From positions 3,712 to 67,711 of the forward strand of contig JAGLYV010000078.1 of NCBI GenBank assembly GCA_023131975.1: a stretch of DNA of 64,000 nucleotides. Reading direction: 5' to 3'. The notes below the pieces were generated by a model. That model did no database searches. It was given only the letters and a program-made list of their open reading frames with translations, and was not told where the DNA came from. How positions within the stretch are numbered: the stretch's first letter is position 1; every line of letters begins with the position of its first letter. Below are positions 30,796 to 53,079 of this stretch, piece after piece. Made by a program: the position numbers and the translations under genes. This DNA is from Candidatus Krumholzibacteriia bacterium (lineage in GTDB: Bacteria; Krumholzibacteriota; Krumholzibacteriia; Krumholzibacteriales; Krumholzibacteriaceae).

Positions 30796-30880
30796 AGCTG
30801 AACTGTCCCGTCTCAGTTACCGACTAAACTTATGTCTTTAACCGTTAATCTATATGCCCCCTCCTTGTTAAAGACCTCTC

Positions 30881-34627: not shown

Positions 34628-34884
34628 CGATCGATTCTCCTTTTTTCATGTTCAAGACCGGGGCAGTATAGCAATACTCCCGGCCAAACTCAAGCTTATA
34701 CCCGCTGATCAGCATATTTATCATTGTACGAAGAATCGATTAACGCTACTATGACTGTTCGTGGAGTGTAATTACCAAGTCCTTATCGCACTGGTCCCCG
34801 ACCGCTGATTCAACCAGGATCTTTGAGGACCAGCGACGATCGATCAGAGAATCAGATTTTCTCGCTCTCAGCAGGAGACAGGTG

Positions 34885-36803: not shown

Positions 36804-36830
36804 AAGATTTTTACGACACAGGTATCTCTC

Positions 36831-37622
36831 GTGAAGGTGATTAGAGAAGGAGTGGATCTTGAAGCCTTTCTGAGGTCCCTGCGCGCCAGAAAGGAAAGAG
36901 TGCTCCTACTCGACTACGACGGAACACTCGCTCCGTTCAGGGTAAAAAGATCGATGGCCTTTCCATACGAAGGAGTAAGGGATCGTATATCAACTATACT
37001 GAGACTGGAAAGATGCAGGACTGTGATTATCTCGGGCAGGAGCATAAAAGATTTGCCCCCGTTGCTCGGCATTCATCCCCTACCCGAGATATGGGGATGC
37101 CACGGATGGGAAAGGCTTTACCCAGATGGAACCTACGCTGGACCAACACTCGGGAATGAGACTGAAAAAGCGTTCAACCTTATCCGGTCATGGGCCGCAA
37201 GTAAAGATATCGGATCACGGTGCGAATCAAAGCCGGCATCGATTGCCGTACACTGGCGCGGAATCGATGAAAGCAAAGCAGAATCAGAGAGAATATCCCT
37301 CGAGACAGATGTGGTTCCGAATCTGAAAGACGCTGGCATAGCAGTTAGAAGATTTGACGGAGGGCTCGAATTTGTCGCCACTGGAAACGACAAGGGGACT
37401 GCGGTGAAAACAATCCTGCGAGAGAGCGGAGATGACGCAGCCATAGTCTACATGGGCGATGACCTTACCGACGAAAAGGCGTTCGAGGCCCTGAGTAAAA
37501 AAGGGCTCTCCCTCCTTGTAAGACCGGAATTCAGGAAGACCGCCGCCGATGCATGGCTTATCCCTCCAGGTGAGCTCCTCGATTTTCTTGATTACTGGAT
37601 AGAAGGATGTGCACTCACATGA
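36831..37622 (+). CDS. otsB: Trehalose-6-phosphate phosphatase (HAD family)
   Basis: Has the HAD motif I LLLDYDGTLAP, a later GDD motif (YMGDDLTDE), and a probable GTG start. Confidence 0.75.
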   Translation: MKVIREGVDLEAFLRSLRARKERVLLLDYDGTLAPFRVKRSMAFPYEGVRDRISTILRLERCRTVIISGRSIKDLPPLLGIHPLPEIWGCHGWERLYPDGTYAGPTLGNETEKAFNLIRSWAASKDIGSRCESKPASIAVHWRGIDESKAESERISLETDVVPNLKDAGIAVRRFDGGLEFVATGNDKGTAVKTILRESGDDAAIVYMGDDLTDEKAFEALSKKGLSLLVRPEFRKTAADAWLIPPGELLDFLDYWIEGCALT

Positions 37623-39109
37623 ACAGCGAAACTGCGGCTTATAAAAGGCTTGTGATAGTATCCAACCGGCTTCCTTTCGTTCTTGAGAAGTGCGGAGACG
37701 GATGGACTGCGATTCCGGGTTCAGGCGGTCTTGTAACGGCCCTTGCCCCCGTACTCAGAAACCGCGGAGGCATATGGATCGGCTGGCCCGGCATCTCCGA
37801 ATCCGCCGACATATCCGAACTGGTCGAAAAAGCCTCAAAAGATGCGGGGTTTTCGATGACACCCGTAATGCTCAACAAGGATGAGGTTCTGAACTATTAT
37901 GTAGGTTTTTCAAATGAAGTCATCTGGCCGCTCTTTCACGATTTTCAGTCCTACTGCAACTTTGACCCCCGTTACTGGGAAATTTATCAAAAGATAAATT
38001 CGAGGTTTGCTTCTGTAATTGCCGAAAATGCCTCCCCGGAGGATTTTATATGGGTTCATGACTATCACCATATCTGTGTGGCCACCGAACTGAGAAAGCT
38101 GAACGTATCCTCCCGGCTCGGATTCTTTCTGCATATACCATTTCCTCCTCTGGACCTCTTTGTCAAGCTCCCCTGGAGATATGAGCTGCTGCGGGCGATG
38201 CTCGACTACGACCTTATAGGATTCCAAACTCTTCGCGACCGACGGAATTTCACACAGTGTCTTGGGGCCTTTGTAAAAAACATCCGCACGAAGGGGACAG
38301 GACGGCTTCTTTCAGTGGAATTTGAAGGACGGACGAGACTCGTAGGAGCATTCCCTGTCAGCATCGATTACCGGGAATTCTCCCAGATGGCCAGGACACG
38401 CGAAGTGGCTGACAGAGGGTGGTTTATTCATGAAGACATCCCGGACAGAAAGATAGTGCTGGGTGTGGATAGACTTGATTATACCAAGGGCATCATTTAT
38501 CGACTCAAGGCTTTTGCGAGACTGTTGGAAAAACACCCTGAGATACACAGGATGATCACACTAGTACAGGTCGTCGTTCCAAGCAGAAGGAACATTCCCA
38601 TATACGAGAACCTCAAGGTTGAGATCGAAAGACTCGTGGGCGAGATCAACGGGAGGTTCACAAAATCAGGATGGGTGCCTATTCATTATATATTCCGATC
38701 CCTGTCAAGGACCGAACTCCTTGCGTATTACCGATCGTCTGAAATAGCTATAGTCACGCCTCTCAAGGACGGCATGAACCTCGTGGCCAAAGAATATTGT
38801 GCTTCGAGCATCGAACAGACAGGGGCGCTTATACTCAGTGAGTTTGCCGGAAGCGCGCATCAGCTCCAAACCGGGGCTTTTATCGTCAACCCCTATCACA
38901 TCGATGAAGTCGCGGATGCGATATACACGGCCTTCAAAATGAATCAAGAAGAACTCAAGGTTCGAATGAAAAAAATGCAGAAATCCATAACCAGGCAGGA
39001 TATATACTGGTGGGTCGATTCATTCCTGAACGCGGCCATATCAGGAAAACTCAAGGATTTTCCTTTTCTCGAAGAACTCAGCCATGATACCGAACCCAAG
39101 TCGGAGTGA
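37619..39109 (+). CDS. otsA: Alpha,alpha-trehalose-phosphate synthase (UDP/ADP-forming), GT20
   Basis: Starts LVIVSNRLP..., with WIGWPG, VHDYHH and [10 protein letters not shown] motifs typical of OtsA. It overlaps the otsB stop. Confidence 0.85.
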
Positions 39110-39184
39110 CAAGACAATCTCGACGATATTTCCTGTGACAGGGAAGGTTAAGGACCCTCTGGCAACTTCTAACGGAGGCGAAGG

Positions 39185-40015
39185 ATGAAAGTCTGTTTCT
39201 TTTCATCGCCCGCCGCATGATCGAGAACGGGATCAGGGTCTCTTTCATCACCGGTGACCACGGCCAGCCGGATGTGGAGATCTACGATGACATCGCTATA
39301 CCGCCACGGAATCCTCTCAGCAGACGCGATAATCGCCCAGACCGAAAAACAGCGTGGACTCCTTAAAGAAAATCTCGGTGTCGACTCGATTCTCATAAGA
39401 AACGGCATACCGCTGGCAACCGATATCGATCCACCCCTGCCGACTCATCCCTCTGATTTCTCTGGTTCCGGAGCCCGGACCCAACGACCGGGATTCCTCT
39501 GGGTAGGCAGCTTTAGAAGGAGAAAACGCCCCGAACTGTTTTTGGAGCTGGCTCGGAGGATACCTGACGCGTCTTTTACGATAATCGGTGGAGGTGGCGA
39601 CGATCCTGCCTACCACGAGGAGATCGTGAGAGAAATAGCCGCACTTGAGAATGTCGATTATCCGGGATTTATGAAACCGGGCGATATCGACCGTTACTAT
39701 TCAAAAGCGTACGCATACGTCAATACATCCACTCTCGAAGGGTTTCCGAACACCTATCTCCACTCCTGGAGATATGGTGTGCCTGTGCTGACCATCGAGA
39801 TAGATCCTGATTCCCTTATCGAGAATAACGGTATCGGCGCCTGCACCGGCGATCTGGAAGGCCTTGTATCCTCTGCCAGAAGATTGCTCGACGATCCTGA
39901 AGAGAGATCGTCCATGTCGTCAAGATCGATCGATTATGTCCGGAAAAATCACGATATCAGGGATAAGGCAGACCAATATATAACTCTATTCAACGACCTT
40001 CTCGATCGTTCCTGA
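39185..40015 (+). pseudogene. Frameshifted/truncated GT4 glycosyltransferase remnant
   Basis: A good SD (AACGGAGGCGAAGG) and ATG at 39185 give MKVCFFSSPAA, then a stop. Reading continues in two other frames. An intact GT4 C-terminal domain (FLWVGSFRRRKRPELF...TSTLEGFPNTYLHSWRYGVPVL) is preserved from 39254 onward. The N-terminal Rossmann half is only about 70 codons across three frames, against about 180 expected. Confidence 0.45.
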
Positions 40016-41209
40016 TAATTTTGAGATCATAATATCGAGTCGTTCTGGATATGTCTCTCCCGAGATGTGTTGTTCGGCCCACGCGCGTGCATTCTTCCCT
40101 GTAGCTTCCGCGAGTTTATGATCCAGAAGAAGGCTGCATGTCTTTTCAGCAAATTCTGCGGGGGAATCACCCCTGTGATATTCCCTTCCGTCAGTGAGTC
40201 CCATTCCCGATACGCCTTCACCGGTACTGACGACAGGTACTCCCATCGCCGCCGCCTCCAGCATCCTTATCCTGATCCCGCCAGCAAAGCGAAGCGGCAA
40301 TACCATCGCGGAACATTCTCCGAGTTCTTTTCTTATGTCCCTGACATAACCGGCAAAGACCACATTATCATGATCTCGCCCGGAAATATCTTCCGGTATC
40401 CCCTCTCCCACTACGCGCAATACGGTCCCGGGGCTTTTCTCCAATATGATCGGAAAGATATCATCGAGCATATATCTCAACGCGTCTTCATTGAAATCCG
40501 ATGAAAAATGTCCCAGGAACAACAGGGTTCCTCCCGGTCGATCGTGAATAACGGGGCTGAATTCATCCAGATCCATTGACACGGGAAGATCGATGATCGT
40601 CTTCCCGGCCAGATACGGCATCCCCCTCAGCGTATCAGCGTCCTTTTCCGTGACCGTTATTATGGCCGGGTACTCTCTGTACGCCAGTTTTTCTATCGAT
40701 TCTCTCATCCTGAATCCACGGCTCTTTTTTTGATCGGTCTTTCCTCCTCCACGGTTTTCTCGTGACACGAGATGATCCAGATCGTGAGTAAGAAGAGCGA
40801 CCCGGCGTCCAGCCAGCAGACCTGGAAGCCTGAAGAGATACCAGTAGTTCGCGATCACAAGATCCACATCTTCCGCTTCAGCTGTATCGCGTATCAGGCC
40901 GAGGAAAGGTTCGGGAGCAGCATAACTTACTTCCATGGGAATGGAATGAAAGATGGAGCTATATATATTTTTCAGTTTGTAGAATATTCTGTGAAAAAAT
41001 GATCTTCGGTGTGGGGCCACCATCGCCGCTATCTCGACAGACGGACGCCTGATCTCATCCAGCCTTTTAAGATCCTCCGTTGAAAGTGTCATAGTGGACA
41101 ATATGACTTCGTGTCTCGATGAAAGGCCATCGATCAGGTTCATTATCAACCTGCCCGTGCCTCTTTCAACAGGATAGGGGCTGTATGGCAATGCTATAAG
41201 TATCTTCAT
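39986..41209 (-). CDS. GT4 family glycosyltransferase
   Basis: 407 aa GT-B (..FLGHFSSDFNEDAL.., EAAAMGVPVVST). Confidence 0.8.
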   Translation of the reverse strand: MKILIALPYSPYPVERGTGRLIMNLIDGLSSRHEVILSTMTLSTEDLKRLDEIRRPSVEIAAMVAPHRRSFFHRIFYKLKNIYSSIFHSIPMEVSYAAPEPFLGLIRDTAEAEDVDLVIANYWYLFRLPGLLAGRRVALLTHDLDHLVSRENRGGGKTDQKKSRGFRMRESIEKLAYREYPAIITVTEKDADTLRGMPYLAGKTIIDLPVSMDLDEFSPVIHDRPGGTLLFLGHFSSDFNEDALRYMLDDIFPIILEKSPGTVLRVVGEGIPEDISGRDHDNVVFAGYVRDIRKELGECSAMVLPLRFAGGIRIRMLEAAAMGVPVVSTGEGVSGMGLTDGREYHRGDSPAEFAEKTCSLLLDHKLAEATGKNARAWAEQHISGETYPERLDIMISKLSGTIEKVVE

Positions 41210-42351
41210 CTCTTTGCCCCGTATTCCAGAATTTCATCATATACTGCTATTGTATCTGCCACAGATCTTTCAATCCTGAAACGGTCTTCAAATTCAACTC
41301 GTGCGTTGTTCCCCATTCGGGCAAGTAGATCCCTGTCCTCATAAAGTCTGTTTACGGTATCCGCGATCCCCTCTGGACGGGAATGATCGACCAGGAATCC
41401 GGTCCTGCCGTCTCCGACCAGTTCCGGTATCCCGAATATATTTGTGGCGACAACCGGGAGTCCGCCGGCAAAGGCCTCCATGATGACATACGGCGTAGCC
41501 TCCAGCAACGACGATACAACGAGAATATCGGCGGAATCGATGATTCCCGCAATGTCATCTCTGTACCCGGCGAAAATGACCCTGTCACTCAGCCCATACT
41601 CTGTCACCCTCTGTTCAAGCTCTCCCTTCATCTCCCCCTCGCCGATCAGGGCAAGGACTACTTTATCAGGAAGAAGCCTCATGGACTCAATGAGAGTATC
41701 CTGACCCTTTCTGCTTTCTATGGACCCGATCGAGACGAGTCTTAGATAGCCTTCATCGCGGTCGAACCCGTCGAATATATCGGAGGGATCCGGCCTCCCC
41801 GGGTCCGGGATGCCGTTGTAAACTACCCTTATCCTCGATTGTGAGATTTTGTGTTTGTCTGTCAGGTGTTTTATATTATCGGAACTGACCGTTATCACCC
41901 TGTCAATATGCCTGCTCCCGACCCCCTTGAGGATCCTCCCCTTCATAAATGAATCGACCATCGGAAGGTGTTCCGTTGAAACAATAGCCTTTACACCGGC
42001 GGCCCTTGCAACAGGAGCCACAAGGCTGTACCACGAATCAAAGGGGCCCGGAAGGTTCAGATGAAATACTTCCGGGGATATATCTTTAAGTACCTTGTAC
42101 AGAGAACTTGCTCCAACCACGGAAAAAATACTCTCCCACCTTATCCTGAAATGATCGATTCCCGAGTCCTTGAACCATCTACCAAGTCTTCCCTCTCCAC
42201 CACCGCCGCAACTTACCAGGGTAGGAGTATAACCTCTGCCGGCCAGATTTGACGCCAGGAGAAAAAGATACCTTTCAGCTCCCCCGGTGTATGAAGCATC
42301 GGAAAATAATACTACTCTCACTTTGTCAGATGATCCATTCACACTAAGCAT
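41206..42351 (-). CDS. GT4 family glycosyltransferase
   Basis: 381 aa GT-B (VVLFSDASYTGGAERYL N-domain; IMEAFAGGLPVVAT C-domain). Confidence 0.8.
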   Translation of the reverse strand: MLSVNGSSDKVRVVLFSDASYTGGAERYLFLLASNLAGRGYTPTLVSCGGGGEGRLGRWFKDSGIDHFRIRWESIFSVVGASSLYKVLKDISPEVFHLNLPGPFDSWYSLVAPVARAAGVKAIVSTEHLPMVDSFMKGRILKGVGSRHIDRVITVSSDNIKHLTDKHKISQSRIRVVYNGIPDPGRPDPSDIFDGFDRDEGYLRLVSIGSIESRKGQDTLIESMRLLPDKVVLALIGEGEMKGELEQRVTEYGLSDRVIFAGYRDDIAGIIDSADILVVSSLLEATPYVIMEAFAGGLPVVATNIFGIPELVGDGRTGFLVDHSRPEGIADTVNRLYEDRDLLARMGNNARVEFEDRFRIERSVADTIAVYDEILEYGAKR

Positions 42352-42360: not shown

Positions 42361-45009
42361 TTACGAGCCGGGACGGATGAGTACTCTTGTAATTTCATAT
42401 CCATTAGCACTGTCCCTGTTTCGCAGGTAGTCGTGGATCTTTCTGTTGGGCAGATACGAGGCTTCCTTCACTGATATTCTGAAAGTATATACTCCGGGAG
42501 ACATCCCCTCGGGGACATGTATCCGGAATTCCTGCCTGACAGGAGAATCACTCCACTGATCAGGAAATGCCCTTCCCCCCATTAATCTTTCGGATCTTGT
42601 CGTCCTGAAAAACATTCCCTGACGTCTTTCGATAATTCTTCTATATTGCTTGTCATACCATTCCCTGTAGAATGCCCCTTTTGGAAAATCGGTATCCAGC
42701 CGCACCGTCCATTCAAGGGGAAGACCGAAATCAACTCCGTGTACAGCCCTCCAGCAGAAAGAACCTTTCAGTGTGTCTCCAGACACGATCTCTCTCGAAT
42801 CCATCCATATACTTTCAAGCCGGATCCCGGTGTCCGGAAACTCTTTTCCGGAAAGAATACGCAAGCTGGAATCGTATGGAATATCTTCGTCGAGGAATGC
42901 TTCCACATCTTCCCCGCATTCAGACGGTCCGGTCACAGAAGTAATAAGTCCATCTGATATCAGATCCCCCGGGCAATCCACATCGACCGAAAAGAGGAGG
43001 AACCTGCCGTTTCGAGATATCTCGTTCAAAACAGGTCCAGCAGATCGGAATTTCAACAGAATATCGTTTGTCGCATCGACTGGCACGGTGCTGAAAAAAT
43101 CACAGGACACTTCTCGCTCCGTATCCACAACCAGATAACCGACTCCCTCTGTTTTCAGCCACTCCAGGCTTTCCCACATGGGTACTACCGGGCTGAAAAG
43201 ATCCCGGGTATTCTCGATCCTTTCTACCGCATGGGGGTCAGATGGGGAACCGTGTTGCCCCAGGATGACAGTCACAAAATGGTCCGTCACAGCTGAAATC
43301 AGATAACTTGTTTCCGGATCCGAACTGATAACGGAGTTCGAAGGCAGCTCTGAAAGAAGACCCTCTATGTCCGAGATCGCTTCTCCTTCATCAGCCTCCG
43401 GCTGACCGGCGAGACTTCCTGTGACCTTATAAGCATCGATAGCAGCGGTCCTCAAAGGTAACGCGATCAAAGCGATCAGGATGATAGCCAGGGTCCTCAC
43501 CAGCAATCTGTTCCACCACGCCACCTGCCCCGCAGTTTTATTGATTCTTCCACTGACCAGGAGACGTAACGAGCCGACAGTCAAAACGGATAGTACACAT
43601 GCCATCGGAGCAGCATCCAGCAGCCTGTAGTACAGGTATCCACTGAGGGATATCAGGAAAGTCGATGTCAGGGGGTTGAAAACGAGGAGTGCTGGCAGAA
43701 GGAACATAAGTCCCGCAAGAAATCCATATTCCCTTATTCTACCTGATATGAAAATGAACGGTGAGAGAAGAGCAATGAAAAAGAAAGAAAGCCCGGAATA
43801 CGACAACACTTCAGCGGGATCCACAACAGAGAGTGTCCTGCCTATCATCAAAAGACCCTGCGCGTGAGTATGTATTTCGTTAAAATCTCTCCCTGAGATC
43901 AATAGTCGAATGATCAGGGGCAGAACAATCGCCACAAGTATGATCGGAAACGCAAATCCAAGTCGCACCCTCCACTTCGCTCCTCTTCCCGGAAACATAC
44001 TGTACAGGAAAAACGAAACCATTGTGATTCCGAGCAACAGGGGAAAGACAATATGGACCGCGACTCCAGCCAGTGACAGGATCGCTGCATAGACAAGGTT
44101 CCATTTCCCACTGCCTTTGATATACCGGATTATGTATCCAGCCGTAAGCCAGTATAGCGCCATCATCATGTTTTTGCTGTAACCGGCTTTGGTCAGCCAC
44201 ACCAGGCCTTCTCCATGTATGAGGAGAATAAGGAAGACAGATGCAAGGATCGTGAGGGCCAGTGACCTCAGGATCTCTCTCGCAAACACCCAGAAGGCTA
44301 ACAGATAGAAGAAAGCAAGAAATGAGGGAAGCATGCGCCAGAGGATCAGGGGAGAAGTATCAGCCATGAATACCCATAGTGCCACAACAGGATGCCATGC
44401 GCCTTTCCGTGGATCAAAAAGGCCCCCGTCACCACCTTTAAAAAATGAATCAGCAGGAAAGAGGCGACCTGTCTCGATACTTCTGCCTATATAGCTCAAA
44501 TGATCGGGGGCATCTGTCGCGATTCCCGTCTCACCACTCCCGAAATAGAATACAAAGAGGAGAAGAAACATCGCAGAGCCAAAAAACAGGAGTGCTTTTC
44601 GTTCGCGTGGAGCCAACTCATCGCCTGTTCCAAGAATCCCTACGAGGTCCCCTCTTTCGCAGGGATAGGGATACCCGCATCTTACAAAGACAAGTACGGC
44701 CATCCCGGCTGTAGCAACAACCCCCATGACAGCGATTACAGGATAATCCAGTCCAGGAATCAAACCGAGGCTCACAAGCAGGATCGAGTAGATCAGCCCC
44801 GAAGAAAAGACCCGTGATAACCCTTCCACGGTCACGGTCAATTTCCCGAAAAATAGATAGTTGATGTATATCCCCGGCAAGACAAAGATAGACAGAAATG
44901 CCAGTGCGACCCCGACTATCTCCAGCCCCGGAATGACTCTGAAAGCGGTCAGAAGGGAAAGACCCAGTATCGATATAGAAATAACAAGTGCAGTCGTTCT
45001 CTTGTTCAT
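42361..45009 (-). CDS. Large GT-C-fold membrane glycosyltransferase candidate (YfhO/ArnT-like: about 14 TM helices plus a roughly 280-aa C-terminal extracytoplasmic domain)
   Basis: 882 aa with long hydrophobic stretches through about residue 600, then a soluble tail. Located downstream of an ArnE-like 4-TM protein and a soluble GT2 polyprenyl-P sugar synthase. This is the same gene logic as csbB-gtcA-yfhO and arnC-arnE/F-arnT. Confidence 0.4.
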   Translation of the reverse strand: MNKRTTALVISISILGLSLLTAFRVIPGLEIVGVALAFLSIFVLPGIYINYLFFGKLTVTVEGLSRVFSSGLIYSILLVSLGLIPGLDYPVIAVMGVVATAGMAVLVFVRCGYPYPCERGDLVGILGTGDELAPRERKALLFFGSAMFLLLFVFYFGSGETGIATDAPDHLSYIGRSIETGRLFPADSFFKGGDGGLFDPRKGAWHPVVALWVFMADTSPLILWRMLPSFLAFFYLLAFWVFAREILRSLALTILASVFLILLIHGEGLVWLTKAGYSKNMMMALYWLTAGYIIRYIKGSGKWNLVYAAILSLAGVAVHIVFPLLLGITMVSFFLYSMFPGRGAKWRVRLGFAFPIILVAIVLPLIIRLLISGRDFNEIHTHAQGLLMIGRTLSVVDPAEVLSYSGLSFFFIALLSPFIFISGRIREYGFLAGLMFLLPALLVFNPLTSTFLISLSGYLYYRLLDAAPMACVLSVLTVGSLRLLVSGRINKTAGQVAWWNRLLVRTLAIILIALIALPLRTAAIDAYKVTGSLAGQPEADEGEAISDIEGLLSELPSNSVISSDPETSYLISAVTDHFVTVILGQHGSPSDPHAVERIENTRDLFSPVVPMWESLEWLKTEGVGYLVVDTEREVSCDFFSTVPVDATNDILLKFRSAGPVLNEISRNGRFLLFSVDVDCPGDLISDGLITSVTGPSECGEDVEAFLDEDIPYDSSLRILSGKEFPDTGIRLESIWMDSREIVSGDTLKGSFCWRAVHGVDFGLPLEWTVRLDTDFPKGAFYREWYDKQYRRIIERRQGMFFRTTRSERLMGGRAFPDQWSDSPVRQEFRIHVPEGMSPGVYTFRISVKEASYLPNRKIHDYLRNRDSANGYEITRVLIRPGS

Positions 45010-45051
45010 CCGAACTCCTGACCGCGTACCAACCCGAGCTTTTACTTTTGC

Positions 45052-45420
45052 CTAACTGTAAGTCTTGCTTACCAGAAATACACCGGCGCAGATTACAAGA
45101 ATACCCGCGAATCTCTGGACAGAAAACGGTTCGTTAAGCAGTACCGGAGCGAGAAGCGCAGTTATGACATATGAAAGACTGACCATCGGGAAAGCCCAAC
45201 TCAACTCAGCCCTGGAAAGTATCACTATCCAGAGTACGGCACTCACCGCGTATGAACAGAACCCGCCGATAACGAAGCCCGATGTGATGACCTTCATCGT
45301 GGTTCCCGCTATATTACTCAGATCCAGCTTCCCGATCTTGTTTATTCCGGCTTTCATCATAAACTGACCGGCAGTGTTCAGGCAGACAGTGGCAATTATA
45401 AGCAGGAGACTTTTAAACAT
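45052..45420 (-). CDS. Small 4-TM DMT/SMR-like protein, ArnE/ArnF-like lipid-linked sugar flippase subunit
   Basis: 122 aa and ArnE-like (AGQFMMKAG...; AFPMVSLSYVITALLAPVLLNEPFS). Confidence 0.55.
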   Translation of the reverse strand: MFKSLLLIIATVCLNTAGQFMMKAGINKIGKLDLSNIAGTTMKVITSGFVIGGFCSYAVSAVLWIVILSRAELSWAFPMVSLSYVITALLAPVLLNEPFSVQRFAGILVICAGVFLVSKTYS

Positions 45421-45460
45421 CTCTCTTCCTTTCCAGGTCAGAACAAAAAATGTCCGGAAA

Positions 45461-46141
45461 TCACTTCAACGGCTTAAAGCGAAGCTTCACAAGATAGAGA
45501 AGGTTCTCGAACCCGTCCTTCCACTTATCCAGCTTGACTTCCCCGACCCGCGGATGATAATTCACGTGATATTCGTCAAACTTTATCTCGGGATGACGAA
45601 TGGCATTTATCTTTATCTCCTCACTGAGGGGCATACCGTCACTCTCAAGCTGAAGCTTGGGATAGATCTCGCTCCTGTATATCCACATACCCGACTGCGA
45701 GTCGTTTATAGCCCTGAAAAAAAGAAGGAATGTGCCCGCGGTAAGAATCCAGTTCCCGAGCTTATTGGACAGATTCATGGCATCCTGGTTCTTCAGGGGA
45801 AACCTGGAGGCTGAGACGAAATCGAGTTCTTTATCGAGAAGGTGGTCGATGCATTCCTCGATCTGTTCGACAGCGTAAGTGCCGTCACCATCCATCGTGA
45901 CAGTGATGTCACCTGTGACCGATGGCAACCCGGCTTTGTATGCCGCTCCGTATCCTTTGCGCTTTTCAAATACTACTCTGGCTCCCAGCTTTTTCGCAAC
46001 CTCTGACGTCCTGTCTGTGGAATTGTTATCGACTACGACGATCTCATCCACGGATTCAGGCAACGAAGGGATGACCAGGGCCAGTCCCTCTTCTTCATTA
46101 AAACAGGGGATGACTACAGATATCTTTTTCCCACGATACAT
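45461..46141 (-). CDS. GT2 polyprenyl-phosphate sugar synthase (soluble DPM1/GtrB-like)
   Basis: KISVVIPCFNEEEGL, VVVDNNSTDRT and TMDGDGTY motifs. It has no C-terminal TM helices. Confidence 0.75.
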   Translation of the reverse strand: MYRGKKISVVIPCFNEEEGLALVIPSLPESVDEIVVVDNNSTDRTSEVAKKLGARVVFEKRKGYGAAYKAGLPSVTGDITVTMDGDGTYAVEQIEECIDHLLDKELDFVSASRFPLKNQDAMNLSNKLGNWILTAGTFLLFFRAINDSQSGMWIYRSEIYPKLQLESDGMPLSEEIKINAIRHPEIKFDEYHVNYHPRVGEVKLDKWKDGFENLLYLVKLRFKPLK

Positions 46142-46153: not shown

Positions 46154-47656
46154 TCAGAAAAGGGCTACAATCTTCTCCTTGAAAGGAACAGGGAGACTCA
46201 GTATCAATTCCTTCTCCCTGGGCCCCAAGACCTTCATAAACCGAAATCCGGCGAAAAGCAACACTACCCCGACAACCATCTGAACGGTGAGAGCCGGGAT
46301 CGAATCCCATTTCGACGCCGTTATTGCCAGACAGGCAACAGGAGCCGCCGCCGCGTAACACTTCAAAATAAAGCCGACAGGAGTTCGAATATCCTTCCGG
46401 AACTTCTTGACGGCAACATTAAAGACAACTACTTCCAGGACAAGAACAAGGACAACGGGAATAAAGGCTCCCCAGATGCCGTATCTTGGAATCAAAGCAA
46501 TATCCAGACCTATATTAATAATGGCCATCAAACCGAGTACAATCATGTTAACCCAGCTTTTTTCCATCACATACAGTGCCATACTCAGCGGAGTATAGAG
46601 AAATGAATATGAAAAGACAACGAAAAATAATTGTGTAAACTTTGCTGCTGGAAGCATTTCACTCCCAAAAAGTACTGGAACGAGAGGTCTGGCAAAAGCG
46701 AACCCCATTGCCGCAACCGGTATTACCAGAAGAAAAAGGAGTCTGAAATACAGGTCGATTGCCTCAGGAAGCCTTCCGGAATCCTTTGAATAGACTTCCG
46801 AAGTACCGGCCATAACGATGGGCCATATAGTCAGCGGCACAAATTCCAGGGCCATCTGTGGAATATCGTACGCCAGGCCAAAATATCCCGAAGCCTCCAT
46901 TCCGACCCACTTCCCAAGAAACAGGACTTCGGAATGCCTCCAGACGATCTGATTAAGGAAACCGGTCACTATGAATGGAAGAGAAAACTTCATCATCTGC
47001 GAGAATGCTGGCGGATCGCCCCCGCCCGCCGGACACGACTTTATGAGGCCCACAACCTGAGGAAGGAGTACGGCAGTCATGAGCAGATCGATAATAGCAC
47101 CTGCAAGCAGATAGCCGACAATCCCCATGCCAGCCCTAAGAAGTAACATCATAATAACAAGATAAGCAGCGTTACCAACAGCAATTACAATGCTGAGCAT
47201 CCTGGTCTCATACCAGGCCTGGAGGGTGTTGCTTATCATTGATATCCCGACTTTGAAGATCACTAACCCCACCGCGACCATCAGGTACAGGCTGAAATCA
47301 CCATCCTGAACCTTATATATGGCACTGATCCGGTCCCGGAAGATCCACGTCATCACCAGAACGACACACCACGAAACCATCTGTATTATAAAATATTTTT
47401 TGAGGTTACTTTTGAATCTGCCCATCCCCCCGCTGACCCTTATTCCCGGTAGATACTTGAGTACCGCGTTTCCGCCTCCGACCATTGCGATTATCAGGGC
47501 GAATCCGGCAAGCGTCTTCAGAACACTGAGCATGCCCCAGTTGTAACTCCCCAGAACCCTCACGACTATGACATAACTGATCGGGCCAGCAAGATAGCGC
47601 GCTACCCTGGCGAATATATTCCATGACATCGCTTTTCCCACTTTTTCATATGTCAT
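46154..47656 (-). CDS. wzx: Wzx-like oligosaccharide flippase (MOP/polysaccharide biosynthesis protein family)
   Basis: 500 aa with about 12 to 14 TM helices in a PST-family arrangement. Confidence 0.7.
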   Translation of the reverse strand: MTYEKVGKAMSWNIFARVARYLAGPISYVIVVRVLGSYNWGMLSVLKTLAGFALIIAMVGGGNAVLKYLPGIRVSGGMGRFKSNLKKYFIIQMVSWCVVLVMTWIFRDRISAIYKVQDGDFSLYLMVAVGLVIFKVGISMISNTLQAWYETRMLSIVIAVGNAAYLVIMMLLLRAGMGIVGYLLAGAIIDLLMTAVLLPQVVGLIKSCPAGGGDPPAFSQMMKFSLPFIVTGFLNQIVWRHSEVLFLGKWVGMEASGYFGLAYDIPQMALEFVPLTIWPIVMAGTSEVYSKDSGRLPEAIDLYFRLLFLLVIPVAAMGFAFARPLVPVLFGSEMLPAAKFTQLFFVVFSYSFLYTPLSMALYVMEKSWVNMIVLGLMAIINIGLDIALIPRYGIWGAFIPVVLVLVLEVVVFNVAVKKFRKDIRTPVGFILKCYAAAAPVACLAITASKWDSIPALTVQMVVGVVLLFAGFRFMKVLGPREKELILSLPVPFKEKIVALF

Positions 47657-47658: not shown

Positions 47659-48786
47659 TTATCCAACCTGCCCTGAGAAGGTTTTTATGAAAAATGGAGC
47701 TACATCCGTGATCTTCGACCCGCTGAACGCGACATCCCGATTTGTGAAAAGTGCGCTGAACATACTCTCTTCAGCGGGATGGTAACCATGCATCGCCGCG
47801 ACAGGCGTCTTTCCCATATAACTCGGTACAATAATATTACCTGCATCGAGCTGAAAGATTATGTCCCCGAATCGCCCGTCACTGAATTTAATCCCCATCA
47901 TGACGAGTTCGTCTTCTTTTAATATTCTCCCACGATCAGATCGGCAAAGAATCTCTCTTATCTTATCTCCAGCATGGAGGTCGTTGATCCTGAACCTTGC
48001 CATCGTAGAGTCGAAAAAAGGGATATAATCATCGGGGATCCTGAATCCGGCATCTTCTATCTCCGGGACAAGATCTATATGAGCGGTCACATCGCACATC
48101 CCATGGTCTCCCATAACTGCCAGCATCAGACCATTCTGTTTACAGAGCAGTCCTTCGATCCGTTTGCGGTACCACTCCAATTTCTCTTTTGTTTCAGTCG
48201 ATCCTGTTCCTGTCATGTGCATGACCGCGTCCAGGCCGGCCGTGTATAACAGATAAAAACCATTTCCTTCTTCTTTGAGAGCCACATTCAGTTCGTCAAA
48301 GGCTTTATCTTCCGGCGTCTCGTAGTCCCATACCTTTACATTTATCCCTGATTCGATGGCCCTGTCTAAGATCGTACTTCTTCCTCTTACACTTTCAGGC
48401 GCGAACAACCTCTTTCGGGCGGGAAGATCGAGGTACGGAAGTACCGTGCCGGGAACATCGTAAAGGTTATAGTAGGCCGACACTCCATCGAGACGCCTCA
48501 ACTTCCAGTTTACGAGACGCCTGACCCAGAGTCTGGACGTATCCGACATTCCGGGAACAGACCTGATGAATCTGAACGGGCCGTCATCATCCGCAAATGA
48601 ATACATCATCCACAATTCGTGTTCATCCGGATTTATTCCAGTCATGATCGAAGTCAATGCAGACTGACTGAACCCGGGTACCGTCTCAAGCCTGACCGCG
48701 TCCGACAACCCTTCAGGTCTGAAAGCATGCCTGCTGACAAGTTCGAATCCCAGAGCATCGATGATTATCAACACTTTCTTGCTCAT
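47659..48786 (-). CDS. Alkaline-phosphatase-superfamily enzyme (type I phosphodiesterase / nucleotide pyrophosphatase-like)
   Basis: Starts MSKKVLIIIDALGFELVS (metal-site Asp motif) and has a later MGDHGM motif. No signal peptide or TM is evident. Start chosen at the internal ATG, which avoids overlap with the upstream gene. Confidence 0.55.
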   Translation of the reverse strand: MSKKVLIIIDALGFELVSRHAFRPEGLSDAVRLETVPGFSQSALTSIMTGINPDEHELWMMYSFADDDGPFRFIRSVPGMSDTSRLWVRRLVNWKLRRLDGVSAYYNLYDVPGTVLPYLDLPARKRLFAPESVRGRSTILDRAIESGINVKVWDYETPEDKAFDELNVALKEEGNGFYLLYTAGLDAVMHMTGTGSTETKEKLEWYRKRIEGLLCKQNGLMLAVMGDHGMCDVTAHIDLVPEIEDAGFRIPDDYIPFFDSTMARFRINDLHAGDKIREILCRSDRGRILKEDELVMMGIKFSDGRFGDIIFQLDAGNIIVPSYMGKTPVAAMHGYHPAEESMFSALFTNRDVAFSGSKITDVAPFFIKTFSGQVG

Positions 48787-48799
48787 ATGATCACTTTTC

Positions 48800-50065
48800 T
48801 TATCTTCCAAATACAATTCTTGACCACCATCTGTGACACGACTCAGCTCCATCATTCCAATCTCCACCTGAATACGGAAAGCCCCCGGGCGGACTGACAT
48901 CGAGATTCCCTGTCCCATTTCTGGCCAGAACGGCTAGTAAGTGAAGCGACGCTGCTCTGACTATTCCAGCAGGAGTGCTGGAAAATAGCGCCCTCCCCAG
49001 AAATGCCGCGGTCCGAACCATATTCACTCTACCGATCCTGGCAGCAATCGGTTTCCAGGACCTCATCCAGTCTATTATCCCATGCCTGTCGGACCGGAAA
49101 ACGGCAACAGGCTGTAATCCTTTCCATGTCAATGGCACCCTGGCATCCTTGTCTAGAGCTGCCGCGCATTTTCCCCATACCTCGAGAATATCTTCAGCGC
49201 ATTCAAGATACATCTCCCTGAATTCACAATCCTGGACCTCGAGTATATCAAGGGAAGGATTAATCTTGAAGACACTCCATTTTCTCGTTTTCCTGACCAT
49301 AGCTTTCGTAATAAGGTTCCTGCAAGGGATCGAATCACATTTTTCATCGATAGATATCCATCTTTTCTGGTATCCGCTCACATACTCTTTCGAAACTATG
49401 AGTATGCCGGTCAGGATATCGGTATATACCCGCGCGATATTATAGAAAAAACCATAGATCTCATCTTCTCCTTCGGGATTATTCTCCGGCCAGCATGACA
49501 GAAGTGAGGCCATCCTGTTTTCAAGGAGAAGCAATCCCTCACTGACTTCGATATCACCCGTATTGAAAGAAGGCAGCATGTCGAGGATCATTTCTTTCCC
49601 GTATAGAATATGGCCGTGATTCTTCAGTACAAATACTCCGGGAGAAGGAGAAAAAGATCCCAGCTCATCAACATGAACAATGCCGACATCCACCCTTCCA
49701 AGAAAAGTCGCTTCTGGAATCAATCCCTCGCATGCCTCTCCCAGTTCTTTTCTGAGAGCAAGCGATTCAAGAAGCTTCTCCCTAGAATTCAGGACGACAA
49801 GCAGGTCTATATCCGAGAGAAAAATCGGGTTTCCACTCTCAAATGAAATAGTACCCTCTCCAAGGGCGAAACTTCCTCCCAGAATGATCGCCTCTGTATT
49901 ATCAAGTCCGATATTGTCGGAAAGAAGGGATCCGCATTCTCGAAGAAAACCATGAAAATGTTCGAGATACCAGGCAGACGCGGGATTGCCGGAATCTTTC
50001 TCATCCAGCCTGAAAAACCCGCATTCATTATACGGGTCGTTATCGTGATTATCTCTACCTGGCAA
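48800..50065 (-). CDS. Nucleotidyltransferase-fold protein (Pol-beta superfamily; LicD-like phosphotransferase or other NTase) with large C-terminal region
   Basis: ILGGSFALGEGTISFESGNPIFLSDIDLLVVL matches the hG[GS]x(9-13)[DS]hDh NTase signature. A downstream acidic residue lies in VGIVHVDEL. 421 aa. Its start abuts the BY-kinase stop. Confidence 0.45.
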   Translation of the reverse strand: MPGRDNHDNDPYNECGFFRLDEKDSGNPASAWYLEHFHGFLRECGSLLSDNIGLDNTEAIILGGSFALGEGTISFESGNPIFLSDIDLLVVLNSREKLLESLALRKELGEACEGLIPEATFLGRVDVGIVHVDELGSFSPSPGVFVLKNHGHILYGKEMILDMLPSFNTGDIEVSEGLLLLENRMASLLSCWPENNPEGEDEIYGFFYNIARVYTDILTGILIVSKEYVSGYQKRWISIDEKCDSIPCRNLITKAMVRKTRKWSVFKINPSLDILEVQDCEFREMYLECAEDILEVWGKCAAALDKDARVPLTWKGLQPVAVFRSDRHGIIDWMRSWKPIAARIGRVNMVRTAAFLGRALFSSTPAGIVRAASLHLLAVLARNGTGNLDVSPPGGFPYSGGDWNDGAESCHRWWSRIVFGR

Positions 50066-50830
50066 TTATACCCGCCTGTATATGAACTCGGGGATATAGT
50101 ATTTTTTCTTATTCAAAACAGAACCTATGAATTCTCCATCCAGCTTCTCGATCATAGTCATCGCTCTCTTTATTACTTCCCTCTTCGTCCTGCCCGCCTC
50201 GACGACTATAACAATGCCAGTAGAGAGTGCCCCGATGATCGGCGTCTCAGGAGCCTCAAGTATCGCTGATGTATCTATAAGCACATAGTCATAATGCTCC
50301 GCGACAGCATTGATAAAACTTTTCATCCGCTCGGAATTGAATAGCGGTTGGGTAATATCCGCGCTTCTTGTCGTCCCGATCGTGATAATATCCATCACAC
50401 CCTCGTCCAGGACAGTGATCACTTCTGAAAGTTCAGCTTCACCCGACAGCAGATCGAGAATACCTTTCTCATTGCTGACACCGAAGAGGTCATGAAGCTG
50501 CGGGTTGTTGACCGCGCAATCGATTATCAGTACCCTGTCCACTTCTCCCAGGGCCAGCACCCTGGCAAGATATGCGGAGATCATCGTCTTACCTTCACCC
50601 CCGACAGCACTCGTAAACATCACAACTCGCGAATCGCGGTTCTTGATCTCGGAATCGATGGCATTACGGAGGTTCAACAGTGATCTTCGAAAATCTTTGT
50701 CCAGCCCCTTCATGAAGCTGGTCTCACCCCTGCTGGATACACGTTTGGCGGGTTTCGGTCTCAACACTTTTCCCGAACCGGTCTTTTTTGCGGTCTCCGC
50801 TTTTCTCAGGGCATCGAATATCTTACTCAA
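50066..50830 (-). CDS. BY-kinase (CpsD/CapB/Wzc-C-domain-like tyrosine autokinase ATPase)
   Basis: Has Walker A FTSAVGGEGKT, Walker A' VLIIDCAV, Walker B DYVLIDTSAIL and a C-terminal Tyr-rich tail KKKYYIPEFIYRRV. Confidence 0.75.
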   Translation of the reverse strand: MSKIFDALRKAETAKKTGSGKVLRPKPAKRVSSRGETSFMKGLDKDFRRSLLNLRNAIDSEIKNRDSRVVMFTSAVGGEGKTMISAYLARVLALGEVDRVLIIDCAVNNPQLHDLFGVSNEKGILDLLSGEAELSEVITVLDEGVMDIITIGTTRSADITQPLFNSERMKSFINAVAEHYDYVLIDTSAILEAPETPIIGALSTGIVIVVEAGRTKREVIKRAMTMIEKLDGEFIGSVLNKKKYYIPEFIYRRV

Positions 50831-50858
50831 GTGTTTTCCCTTCGCCGTGGAAAGGCCC

Positions 50859-51704
50859 CTACATCGGCCCGTTCCTTCGATCCATCACCGGACTTTCCTT
50901 GCTTTCCAGATCCCGTATTCCCTCTCGTACGATCTTGCCGCTGATAGTCCTTGTGTTGGCCACATACCCAAGAAGAAGCACCCTGTCACACAACACATTG
51001 ATAAGCCTGGGCGTCCCGCCTGAATAATGGTAGATCTCCTCTAGAGCATCATCCGTAAAAACCGGCCCTCCGTTATTAACAGAGGCGATCTCCAGTCTGT
51101 ATTTGATATATTTAATGACGTCCTCTCGACTCAGCATGGGTATCCTGCATACCCCAGGTATCCTTTGACGCAGTTGCCGCAGTTCGTTGAGGTTGAGAAT
51201 ATTTTCGAGTTCCGGTTGACCGACAAGCATAATCTGGATCAACTTCCTATCACGAGTCTCAAGATTTGAAAGCATCCGCAATTCTTCCAGGACTTCGGGA
51301 GAAAGATTCTGTGCCTCATCGATTATCAGTACCGTATTCCTGTTGTTTTCATATTGGGAGATGAGAAAACGGTTCAGGGCCAGAAGCATCTGGGCCTTGT
51401 TCATATTTTCAGCGTCTATTCCAAAATCATTACAGATCAGGTACAGCAGCTGATCGAAAGGGAAAAGGGTGGAAAAAACAAAAGCCACCTCGAGCGAAGG
51501 CTGGAAAAGGTCGATAAACGCGTTCACTACCGTTGTCTTCCCTACGCCGACCTCACCGGTGACAGCGATGAATCCCTTTTTCTGGAATACCCCATAGGTA
51601 ATATACGCAAGCGCGTCCCTGTGGCTCTCGCTCCTGTACAGAAACCTGGGATCAGGAGTGACGTTGAATGGCAGTTCTTTGAATCCGTAATAATTTTCGT
51701 ACAT
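50859..51704 (-). CDS. ExeA/GspA-like AAA ATPase of the type associated with EPS/PEP-CTERM loci
   Basis: Has an N-terminal FxLxxxPF..PDPRFLY box, a Walker A GEVGVGKTT and Walker B LIIDEAQNL. Confidence 0.65.
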   Translation of the reverse strand: MYENYYGFKELPFNVTPDPRFLYRSESHRDALAYITYGVFQKKGFIAVTGEVGVGKTTVVNAFIDLFQPSLEVAFVFSTLFPFDQLLYLICNDFGIDAENMNKAQMLLALNRFLISQYENNRNTVLIIDEAQNLSPEVLEELRMLSNLETRDRKLIQIMLVGQPELENILNLNELRQLRQRIPGVCRIPMLSREDVIKYIKYRLEIASVNNGGPVFTDDALEEIYHYSGGTPRLINVLCDRVLLLGYVANTRTISGKIVREGIRDLESKESPVMDRRNGPM

Positions 51705-51709
51705 AGCTT

Positions 51710-53074: not shown

Positions 53075-53079
53075 TATCT

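Follow-up and report, generated by a model that had tools for sequence, protein, structure and literature searches.

A putative three-component periplasmic glycosylation module with a GT-C-fold enzyme of an uncharacterised family in a Wzx-type exopolysaccharide operon

The window (the whole 64-kb stretch of DNA analysed in this study) contains three neighbouring minus-strand genes encoding a GT2 glycosyltransferase (45461..46141; 226 aa, no TM helix), a small 4-TM protein of the DMT/EamA type (45052..45420; 122 aa), and an 882-aa membrane glycosyltransferase with a GT-C fold, whose family is uncharacterised (42361..45009). All three ORFs were found exactly where a preliminary description of this DNA had placed them, and the intergenic gaps within the triad are 40 and 42 nt. 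The gene for a 500-aa Wzx-type (MOP superfamily) flippase with approximately 11 TM segments (46154..47656, minus strand; Pfam Polysacc_synt_3, 7.8e-15, and Polysacc_synt, 7.5e-12) lies directly upstream, 12 nt from the GT2 gene. Directly downstream, 9 nt from the 882-aa gene, is an stp2-like GT4 glycosyltransferase gene (41206..42351, minus strand; Pfam Glycos_transf_1, 3.7e-38), whose product also matches the PEP-CTERM/XrtA glycosyltransferase model TIGR03088 of NCBIfam (2.6e-46, under the cutoff). It overlaps by 4 nt with an stp1-like GT4 gene (39986..41209, minus strand; Pfam Glyco_trans_1_4, 3.1e-21; NCBIfam TIGR03087, 3.4e-32, under the cutoff), which is the last gene of the operon. The triad had been described as lying between GT4 genes and the Wzx flippase, and the coordinates agree, with Wzx upstream and the two GT4 genes downstream. 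The triad and its neighbours are real genes with numerous homologues.

The operon part upstream of the Wzx gene (47659..54738, minus strand) was assigned using Pfam and NCBIfam. It begins with the first gene of the operon, encoding an initiating phosphoglycosyl transferase (53989..54738), followed on the same strand by genes for a Wza-like exporter (53080..53928), a PCP/chain-length protein (51710..53074), an XrtA/PEP-CTERM-type ATPase (50859..51704), a BY-kinase-like ATPase (50066..50830), a conserved 421-aa protein with no assigned function (48800..50065), and a Phosphodiest-family protein (47659..48918). The NCBIfam TIGR03015 match in this part scored 321 bits (cutoff 324.5). A promoter-like site (54839..54868) was found upstream of the first gene, and all related loci with complete flanks share the gene order of this upstream part. 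The triad thus lies within a Wzx/Wza/PCP/BY-kinase exopolysaccharide (EPS) operon of the Wzx type, XrtA/PEP-CTERM-like, of a Krumholzibacteriota-type bacterium.

The 882-aa protein showed no match at E ≤ 0.1 in Pfam, no match in NCBIfam, and no sequence match in PDB. Its AlphaFold (AF2) model was confident (pLDDT 91.9, pTM 0.93), and in a Foldseek search with this model all of the top 21 matches were GT-C enzymes; the nearest solved structures were AglB/STT3, AftA, DPY19, and ArnT. According to the model, the protein has the GT-C fold in its polytopic membrane domain, as had been proposed. The predicted layout of approximately 14 TM helices and a C-terminal domain was borne out in its second part, a soluble C-terminal part of approximately 350 aa after the membrane helices, but not in its first: hydropathy gave 12–13 hydrophobic segments, and the model has approximately 16 membrane helices, consisting of four N-terminal and approximately 12 core helices.

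The suggestion that the protein fits YfhO best did not hold, since the YfhO HMM (PF09586) was silent at E ≤ 0.1 on both the protein and 53 relatives. YfhO, PMT_2, and Wzy_C were not among the 12 families matched by these relatives (E ≤ 0.1). Membership in the ArnT/PMT families (GT83/GT39; PF13231, PF02366) was rejected because no HMM matched at E ≤ 0.1, and a Wzy/WaaL identity (PF04932, Wzy_C) was rejected because neither an HMM match nor a Wzy/WaaL-type fold was found, the fold being GT-C instead. The STT3/PglB/AglB oligosaccharyltransferase family was also rejected, as the protein has no STT3 HMM match and no WWDYG motif; the conserved motif that follows its last TM helix is SDPxTSY. STT3-type oligosaccharyltransferases are still the nearest solved structures. 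DUF6541 (PF20176) did not match the 882-aa protein itself but was matched by 9 of the 53 relatives (best E, 1.9e-13); in the three relatives inspected, the match covered residues ~50–600 with 18.8–26.5 bits, under the gathering score of 29 bits. Judged by these matches, the family appears to be a divergent neighbour of DUF6541, itself uncharacterised. The family of the 882-aa protein is large (at least 528 cluster representatives) and uncharacterised, and is kin to oligosaccharyltransferases, ArnT, AftA, and DPY19 at the fold level only.

In the model, the GT-C core is preceded by a four-helix membrane bundle (aa 1–110; 44680..45009, minus strand; helices 4–22, 30–54, 61–83, and 89–110) and a disordered cytoplasmic linker (aa 111–133; pLDDT <50 at 116–130). 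Weak matches to DUF1616 in relatives map to this bundle, and many distant relatives align only from profile position ~130–165 onward. The first external loop of the core (aa 155–219; 44353..44547, minus strand) is flanked by TM helices 134–154 and 220–247 and contains short helices at 167–180 and 205–216. The protein thus shows, in an external loop, the pair of short juxtamembrane helices and the conserved acidic residue that are typical of GT-C enzymes. The loop carries the motifs D166-x-x-D169-H170 and D199-P-R201-K202-G-x-x-H206. Among 89 sequences (19–78% identity), D199 and R201 were invariant, and D166, D169, H170, K202, and H206 were at least 90% conserved. The distribution of K and R in the sequence places the loop in the periplasm. 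Conserved acidic residues had been expected in the first periplasmic loop; they are indeed conserved, but as the GT-C core comes after four additional helices, they lie behind the fifth helix and not in the literal first loop. Based on conservation and the model, we propose that this loop is the catalytic and donor-phosphate site. The C-terminal periplasmic region (aa 535–882; 42364..43407, minus strand) is composed of an alpha/beta domain, with the conserved motifs SDPxTSY and QHxxPxD, and a beta-sandwich (aa ~714–882; 42364..42870, minus strand) that resembles carbohydrate-binding modules and, in structure comparison, the carbohydrate-binding domains of Wzt.

The GT2 (Pfam Glycos_transf_2, 6.4e-25) gave as best NCBIfam matches AglJ (3.9e-35), Dol-P-hexose transferase (1.1e-29), PpgS (8.4e-18), and also ArnC, all under their cutoffs. 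The best PDB sequence match was Dol-P-Man synthase 5mlz (3.9e-12, residues 2–218), followed by ArnC. Its AF2 model (pLDDT 88.7) matched ArnC, DPMS, and GpgS at TM scores of 0.7–0.77, and also GtrB; ArnC and DPMS scored 0.73–0.77, and soluble glucosyl-3-phosphoglycerate synthases (GpgS) scored about equally. The motifs NEE15–17, D38, D84xD86, and D147xxSG151 were conserved, with D84xD86 invariant. The protein thus combines a GT-A fold with DxD and has its top NCBIfam and PDB sequence matches in the polyprenyl-phosphate GT2 subgroup, in agreement with the earlier suggestion that this soluble GT2 resembles polyprenyl-phosphate sugar synthases. No hydrophobic segment and no C-terminal TM anchor were found in the GT2; the chain ends after an amphipathic helix (207–221). 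Such an anchor is present in GtrB, ArnC, and archaeal DPMS and is absent in PpgS. From its sequence relationships, we propose that the GT2 is a polyprenyl-phosphate sugar synthase making an undecaprenyl phosphate (Und-P)-sugar donor.

The small protein has four hydrophobic segments, and this number and its size fit the ArnE/ArnF subunits (about 110–130 aa). It matched Pfam EamA (9.8e-07; 29.6 bits, cutoff 28.2), NCBIfam ArnF over its full length (1.6e-17; 64.1 bits, cutoff 99), and NCBIfam ArnE (8e-07; 29.3 bits, cutoff 92). An SMR drug-efflux identity was rejected, as the best SMR model, BcrC, reached only 5.8e-4 (20 bits, cutoff 225), 14 orders of magnitude behind ArnF. GtrA (PF04138) was likewise rejected, with no match at E ≤ 0.1; of the earlier label "ArnE/GtrA-like", the matches favour the first half and not the second. 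These matches indicate that ArnE/ArnF is the nearest family of the small protein, which is not an orthologue. Because both the small protein and the GT2 score under the curated NCBIfam cutoffs, neither has an established orthologue among characterised enzymes. We propose that the small protein is an ArnE/ArnF-like Und-P-sugar flippase and, since it is encoded by a single gene, probably a homodimer.

The view of the triad as a unit in which a synthase, a flippase candidate, and a GT-C enzyme are co-encoded gained support from strict synteny. In each of the 31 related loci that offer at least 1150 nt of sequence ahead of the GT-C gene, the GT2 and small-protein genes come immediately before it, and Wzx precedes GT2 in all 26 related loci with enough flank. 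The median identity of the GT2 across related loci is 76%. In three distant loci (L045, L048, and L049), the GT-C protein is only 26–28% identical, and a GT2 of 62–72% identity is still directly upstream; L049 keeps this pairing in a non-EPS context without repeat-unit machinery. The small protein is absent from these three loci and is therefore not a partner that all family members require. In an Eisenbacteria locus (L046), the gene order is GT2, DUF2304, EamA-type small protein, and GT-C, and the small protein there is a 36% identical homologue at the position matching that in the window. Some family members (L039, L044, and L047) occur alone or next to a MOP flippase, with no GT2.

Taken together, we consider it fairly probable that the triad is a three-component extracytoplasmic (periplasmic) glycosylation module acting on EPS. 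The GT2, which has no TM helix, would work on the cytoplasmic face and load undecaprenyl phosphate with one sugar taken from a nucleotide sugar, as its family resemblance suggests, and the ArnE/ArnF-like protein would carry the Und-P-sugar to the periplasmic leaflet. The GT-C enzyme would then pass the sugar to EPS in the periplasm. Its loop residues D166/D169/H170 and D199/R201/K202 would bind the Und-P-sugar, and its C-terminal periplasmic domains would hold the glycan acceptor, which may be the Wzx-exported repeat unit, the polymer during its growth, or the completed polymer. What points to extracytoplasmic use of a polyprenyl-linked donor by the GT-C protein is the adjacent DPMS-like GT2. 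Counted against the module were the GT2 and small-protein matches under curated cutoffs, the similarity of the GT2 model to GpgS, the lack of the small protein in three distant loci, the position of oligosaccharyltransferases, whose donors are PP-linked and not P-linked, as nearest structures, the family members that stand alone or have no GT2 nearby, and the missing Wzy.

The three genes could also be mere neighbours, with the GT2 a cytoplasmic Leloir transferase acting on the Und-PP-repeat unit, the small protein a DMT/SMR transporter of other cargo, and the GT-C donor coming from elsewhere. The family matches under curated cutoffs, a GT2 without the TM anchor seen in GtrB, ArnC, and DPMS and with a model that also fits soluble GpgS, and the GT2/GT-C loci without the small protein would be in line with this. 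However, the GT2 stays conserved and adjacent where the GT-C protein has diverged, including in the non-EPS locus L049, and ArnF far outscores SMR as a model for the small protein. TM-less polyprenyl-phosphate synthases also exist, PpgS being one, and GacI has the small membrane protein GacJ as its partner (10.1101/180810). We regard this explanation as quite unlikely. Even more improbable, in our view, is that the GT-C protein is oligosaccharyltransferase- or ligase-like and transfers a Wzx-flipped Und-PP-oligosaccharide en bloc to protein or lipid, the GT2 and the small protein serving another step.

As the preliminary description had also suggested, the GT-C protein may instead build the chain of the EPS in place of a missing Wzy, either by processively extending a Wzx-exported Und-PP-primer with single sugars from the GT2-made Und-P-sugar or by joining Und-PP-linked repeat units en bloc. 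Emb/Aft enzymes extend mycobacterial arabinan processively from single-sugar donors. Consistent with the preliminary description, no Wzy-type polymerase was found in the window, whose polytopic proteins are limited to those of the pair at 19410..21265, the two membrane proteins of the triad, and Wzx; nor was one found in the ±10 kb flanks of any related locus. A chain-extending role is for this reason kept as a minority possibility, and we consider it unlikely for both variants together. A Wzy_C-like protein is encoded elsewhere in a sister genome (L047), so the polymerase need not lie in the operon.

The pair at 19410..21265 consists of a GT2 with C-terminal TM helices and an LPG_synthase_TM/"flippase-like domain" protein, and had been taken to mean that two separate donors are made. 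A second polyprenyl-phosphate-sugar synthase is plausible, and this GT2 (20405..21265) has a C-terminal TM anchor, but its partner has an MprF-type flippase-like domain and is not ArnE-like. With such a partner and no second GT-C gene in the window, two donors are unproven.

Several known systems share the logic proposed for the triad. GacI/GacJ/GacK/GacL of Streptococcus pyogenes, which add the GlcNAc side chain of the group A carbohydrate (10.1101/180810), likewise combine a short GT2 making an Und-P-sugar, an adjoining small membrane protein gene, a Wzx-family protein, and GT-C transfer to a polysaccharide outside the cytoplasm. The Eisenbacteria locus reproduces the GacI/GacJ/flippase/GacL arrangement, with DUF2304 as the GacJ-type protein between the GT2 and the EamA-type gene (10.1101/180810). 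In contrast, the window has no DUF2304 gene and its small protein is EamA/ArnF-like; its host is diderm and its glycan an exported EPS, whereas the Gac glycan is a wall-anchored rhamnan; and its GT-C protein has no detectable sequence family in common with any characterised enzyme. ArnC/ArnE-ArnF/ArnT, which place L-Ara4N from Und-P-L-Ara4N on lipid A, also pair a GT2 polyprenyl-phosphate synthase with a 4-TM DMT-type flippase and a GT-C transferase; no model fits the small protein better than ArnF, and the best structural matches include ArnC and ArnT. The window differs from this system in having a single flippase gene where the Arn system has the ArnE/ArnF pair, a GT2 without the ArnC TM helices, and presumably a polysaccharide acceptor. 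Its GT-C protein is 330 aa longer than ArnT, with four extra N-terminal helices, a two-domain periplasmic tail, and no PMT_2/PMT match.

In Citrobacter youngae O antigens, the GT-C enzyme of the three-component GT136 pentofuranose system adds a side chain post-export, and its C-terminal CBM binds the polysaccharide acceptor (PMC11127046). Like the 882-aa protein, it is encoded within a glycan locus and has a GT-C fold; its sequence family was unknown before it was assayed, and the C-terminal beta-sandwich of the 882-aa protein is comparable to its beta-rich CBM. The GT136 donor, however, comes from a polyprenyl-phosphoribose synthase and not a GT2, its flippase is MATE-type, and its enzyme combines 11 TM helices with only one CBM. 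In the PpgS (Rv3631)/Rv3632/Rv3779 system of Mycobacterium tuberculosis, which places GalN on arabinogalactan, a TM-less GT2 of ~226 aa makes the polyprenyl-phosphate-sugar, a small membrane protein is co-transcribed, and a GT-C enzyme delivers the sugar (summarised in 10.1101/180810). Rv3632 is a DUF2304/GacJ-like activator and not EamA-like, and the GT2 of the window is not a PpgS orthologue (64.6 bits, cutoff 370). CsbB/GtcA/YfhO follow the same three steps, and their GT-C enzyme likewise has a large extracytoplasmic portion, but they differ in the YfhO family of that enzyme and in their GtrA/GtcA-like small protein. The scheme of loading, flipping, and attaching a sugar is well known, but the putative attaching enzyme comes from a large, uncharacterised family.

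The three open reading frames reported for the triad in the preliminary description are all present on the minus strand: a GT2 gene (45461..46141, 226 aa), the gene of a small protein (45052..45420, 122 aa), and the gene of the 882-aa protein (42361..45009). As described there, they lie between a Wzx-type gene upstream (46154..47656, minus strand) and two GT4 genes downstream (41206..42351 and 39986..41209, minus strand). The packing is tight: the successive intergenic gaps from Wzx to the first GT4 gene measure 12, 40, 42, and 9 nt, with a 4-nt overlap between the two GT4s. Therefore, the triad, Wzx, and GT4 genes are likely co-transcribed. Upstream of Wzx on the same strand, in order, are genes for a Phosphodiest-family protein, a conserved 421-aa protein of unknown function, a BY-kinase-like ATPase, an XrtA/PEP-CTERM-like ATPase, a PCP/chain-length protein, a Wza-like exporter, and a small initiating phosphoglycosyl transferase; a promoter-like site precedes the first operon gene. 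On the XrtA/PEP-CTERM-associated ATPase model, whose cutoff is 324.5 bits, the second of these ATPases reached 321; among PEP-CTERM glycosyltransferase models, the GT4 pair was nearest to "stp1" and "stp2". Because of these matches, the operon is classified by sequence as a Wzx-type exopolysaccharide (EPS) export operon of XrtA/PEP-CTERM flavour. The window is most closely related to MAGs from Candidatus Krumholzibacteriota and from candidate phyla neighbouring it.

The 421-aa protein shows faint similarity to nucleotidyltransferases. It and the Phosphodiest-family (alkaline-phosphatase-like) protein (both within 47659..50065) are always encoded before Wzx, including in the distant loci L046 and L048, and the two might supply a phospho-substituent to the EPS. 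Their ORFs overlap by 119 nt as listed; the true start of the Phosphodiest gene probably lies later, since its orthologue in the sister locus L001 (78% identical) has a called length of 379 aa.

The triad GT2 belongs to an abundant and very uniform subfamily in which the NEE, DxD, and DxxSG motifs are invariant, and no TM segment was found in it. Its best NCBIfam models were AglJ, the haloarchaeal Dol-P-hexose transferase, PpgS, and ArnC, all scoring far under their cutoffs. The nearest solved relative by sequence was the Dol-P-Man synthase of Pyrococcus (residues 2-218), followed by ArnC. The structural model of GT2 (pLDDT 88.7) had its best superpositions with ArnC and DPMS (TM 0.73-0.77), and GtrB was a further match. 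Since soluble glucosyl-3-phosphoglycerate synthases scored about equally, the fold alone does not settle the acceptor. The small protein has four hydrophobic segments and scored above the EamA cutoff. It matched ArnF end to end (1.6e-17) and ArnE (8e-7), while GtrA gave no match and the SMR efflux models did no better than 6e-4. These values bear out the proposal that it is ArnE-like and not a drug-efflux SMR protein, and the efflux pump was rejected as a candidate. Because the ArnF score is under the cutoff of that model, the small protein is probably ArnE/F-like rather than an orthologue. The presence of a single ArnE/F-type gene suggests that it acts as a homodimer.

The 882-aa protein had no Pfam or NCBIfam match at E<=0.1, and PDB sequence searches with family profiles of 5 and 89 sequences gave chance matches only. 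A word-indexed homologue search found only 4 relatives, and few more came from repeating it with a 53-sequence profile. When 1.84 billion cluster representatives were searched exhaustively with a profile, 528 relatives, each representing a cluster at 50% identity, were recovered at E<=1e-3 (214 at E<=1e-30). Nearly all are about 850 aa long and align end to end. By these sequence comparisons, the 882-aa protein is a member of a sizeable family that has no Pfam or NCBIfam model of its own. When 53 members were scanned, DUF6541 was matched by nine and DUF1616 by five, and none matched YfhO, PMT_2, or Wzy_C. The DUF6541 matches inspected cover the membrane region and score under the gathering cutoff. 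Literature searches on DUF6541, DUF1616, and Krumholzibacteriota exopolysaccharide yielded nothing useful. The preliminary assignment to YfhO is thus not upheld, with no PF09586 match in the protein or these 53 relatives. A Wzy or ligase identity was likewise rejected, as Wzy_C matched neither the protein (E<=0.1) nor any of the 53. A link to the membrane domain of ArnT/PMT through GT39 was discarded since the sole GT39 match to the family profile covers only the C-terminal beta-sandwich. The source label of the distant member P0051, "glucosyltransferase domain-containing protein", was also set aside; neither Pfam nor NCBIfam reproduced such a match.

The AlphaFold model of the 882-aa protein, built on an alignment of 89 family sequences, had a pLDDT of 91.9 and a pTM of 0.93. 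In a Foldseek search of the PDB, the top 21 matches were GT-C enzymes only (STT3, AglB, DPY19, AftA, PglB, and ArnT), in agreement with the GT-C fold proposed earlier. In the model, the GT-C core comes after four helices (aa 4-110) and a linker (aa 111-133) that is disordered and K/R-rich. Helix 134-154 is followed by a 65-residue loop holding short helices 167-180 and 205-216, an arrangement typical of the first external loop in GT-C enzymes. The N-terminus and linker are predicted to be cytoplasmic and the loop periplasmic because of the positive-inside pattern. In this loop, D199 and R201 are invariant among 89 sequences with identities as low as 19%, and D166, D169, H170, K202, and H206 are conserved in 90% or more of them. 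Conserved acidic residues had been expected in the first periplasmic loop; they are there, but the loop in question is the first one in the GT-C core rather than in the entire protein. Q384 is conserved in the long external loop that follows, joined within the close clade by H380 and H382, and D564, P565, Q585, H586, and D591 are conserved directly past the last TM helix. The last 350 residues form two domains, modelled as an OST-like domain and a CBM-like beta-sandwich that together make a periplasmic tail. The beta-sandwich (aa ~714-882; 42364..42870) is a mobile module with a conserved "PDxW...G.Y" pattern and lacks a Pfam model; a 974-aa GT39/PMT_2 protein of Candidatus Promineofilum terminates in it as well (hhalign 95%). 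The GT136 enzyme binds its polysaccharide acceptor through a C-terminal module comparable to this one (PMC11127046).

Synteny is the strongest argument for functional coupling of the triad. We collected 37 related loci: 34 from GTDB species representatives, recovered with a 21-sequence alignment that reached the close clade only, and three from the first searches. GT2 and then the small gene precede the GT-C gene in all 31 loci with at least 1150 nt upstream, and Wzx is also present in all 26 with at least 2700 nt. The GT2 proteins had a median identity of 76%, against 66% for the small proteins and 38% for the GT-C proteins. In L003, which encodes a 38%-identical relative, 383 nt of apparently non-coding DNA stands in place of GT2 and the small gene. 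Three more distant loci encode GT-C relatives of 26-28% identity with GT2 directly upstream and no small gene: L048 has the entire operon and a GT2 of 72% identity, and L045 and L049 have GT2s of 62-64% identity, the L049 pair in a context that is not EPS. As the family member in L039 stands alone and those in L044 and L047 lie beside a MOP flippase with MurA/MurB, GT2 partnership is frequent in the family, not universal. The latter two, from Krumholzibacteria sister genomes (L044, 3691..6294; L047, 7232..9832), represent a second GT-C paralogue of about 26-29% identity whose neighbours also include a GT4 and no GT2; these loci may serve a separate envelope glycan pathway.

Three-component glycosylation modules are established in ArnC/ArnE-F/ArnT, GtrB/GtrA/GtrC, CsbB/GtcA/YfhO, PpgS/Rv3632/Rv3779, GacI/J/K/L, and GT136, and specialists expect them to be widespread. 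With the fold, residue conservation, topology pattern, and gene coupling observed here, we consider it fairly probable that the triad is a periplasmic module adding a sugar from an Und-P donor to EPS, where we infer the donor, flipping, acceptor, and sugar identity. GT2 would make an Und-P-monosaccharide on the cytoplasmic face, the ArnE/F-like protein would flip it, and the GT-C enzyme would transfer the sugar to EPS in the periplasm. The Asp/His/Arg/Lys cluster of the first external loop may bind the donor phosphate and activate the acceptor, and the C-terminal domains may hold the glycan. The three-component logic of the preliminary description is retained without YfhO. The triad differs from the known systems in that its GT-C protein belongs to an unclassified family and has four additional N-terminal helices plus a periplasmic tail of two domains, its GT2 lacks TM segments, it includes only one ArnF-like gene, and it is fixed in a phylum-wide XrtA-type EPS operon without Wzy. 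L046, from an Eisenbacteria MAG, is another locus with a distant GT-C relative (26-28% identity). It runs from Phosphodiest and Wzx through three sugar-modifying genes to GT2, then DUF2304, the gene of an EamA-type small protein with 36% identity to that of the window, GT-C, and GT4, an order that reproduces the GacI/GacJ/flippase/GacL logic demonstrated by experiment in Streptococcus pyogenes. In that species, GacI makes GlcNAc-P-Und, stimulated by the DUF2304 protein GacJ, and the GT-C enzyme GacL moves the sugar onto the polysaccharide (10.1101/180810).

No Wzy was found in the operon. A hydropathy scan of the 64 kb gave Wzx, the 122-aa and 882-aa proteins, and an unrelated pair (19410..21265) as the only polytopic proteins, confirming that no Wzy is recognisable in the window. 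Besides Wzx and GT-C, the related loci also encode no protein with at least five TM segments, even those loci whose ±10 kb flanks are complete. The GT-C protein could hence be a polymerising enzyme that replaces Wzy, using lipid-linked donors to build or join the exported glycan in the periplasm; GT-C enzymes of the AftA and Emb types do make polymers from polyprenyl-P donors. We regard this as unlikely, however, given that Wzy genes frequently lie apart from their clusters, that the sister genome carrying L047 encodes a 490-aa Wzy_C-like protein elsewhere (2.6e-6, below cutoff; 6 kb from the GT-C paralogue), and that GT2 and GT-C are also found as a bare pair outside EPS loci. The nearest structures suggest an OST- or ligase-like enzyme, but the 882-aa protein has no WWDYG motif and the coupling to GT2 would be left unexplained, making this very improbable. 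That the triad genes are mere neighbours is hard to reconcile with a GT2 that is still adjacent, and still >60% identical, where GT-C has diverged to 26-28%, and we give this explanation little credence. Sugar addition by the three components remains our preferred reading.

The pair at 19410..21265 (minus strand) had been described as a second GT2 and flippase-like protein. Its 286-aa GT2, with 2-3 C-terminal TM helices, is indeed of GtrB/ArnC-type build (AglJ 1e-38, PpgS 1.7e-24, ArnC 5.4e-19), but the partner is a 330-aa LPG_synthase_TM / TIGR00374 "flippase-like domain" protein and not ArnE-like. The 64-kb window contains no second GT-C gene. A second glycan gene set (25037..31987, same strand) comprises genes for GT4s, a radical SAM/SPASM protein, a hexapeptide acyltransferase, a GFO/IDH/MocA oxidoreductase, an initiating transferase (30058..30795; the second Bac_transf protein), and a DegT aminotransferase. 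The distant operon L048 has a comparable set after its GT4s. Compared with L001, a four-gene block of DUF5752, TreT-like, trehalose phosphatase, and trehalose-6-P synthase genes (34882..39109, plus strand; region 34882..40015) sits between an NTP-transferase gene and a divergent GT4 (39254..40015). This GT4 has 253 aa in the window versus 384 aa in L001 and appears to have lost most of its N-terminal domain. Adjoining the EPS operon, a 573-aa protein (56286..58007, plus strand) has a weak AMP-binding region (residues 199-313) fused, unusually, to an aspartate-decarboxylase (PanD-type) domain at its C-terminus. There are genes for two FrhB/FdhB-like iron-sulfur proteins, one at 17410..18711 and the other in the segment 58032..60477, where it precedes a polysaccharide pyruvyl transferase gene (CsaB/WcaK-like; 59194..60477). 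Such pairing is common in glycan loci, and we know of no established role for the iron-sulfur partner there. A full-length 6S RNA (5455..5641, minus strand; Rfam RF00013, 75.8 bits) identifies the window as bacterial.

The absence of Wzy from an otherwise complete Wzx/Wza/PCP operon raises a testable question of polymer assembly; if the GT-C protein polymerises, this would be a Wzx-dependent, Wzy-independent route to an exported bacterial polysaccharide. If the triad works as proposed, it would provide the first function for a family of at least 528 cluster representatives of about 850 aa each, and a new GT-C family of unusual build, with four added N-terminal helices, an OST-like domain, and a CBM-like beta-sandwich. 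The triad would mark the EPS of Krumholzibacteriota and neighbouring candidate phyla as modified outside the cytoplasm, which bears on the prediction of glycan structures from metagenomes.
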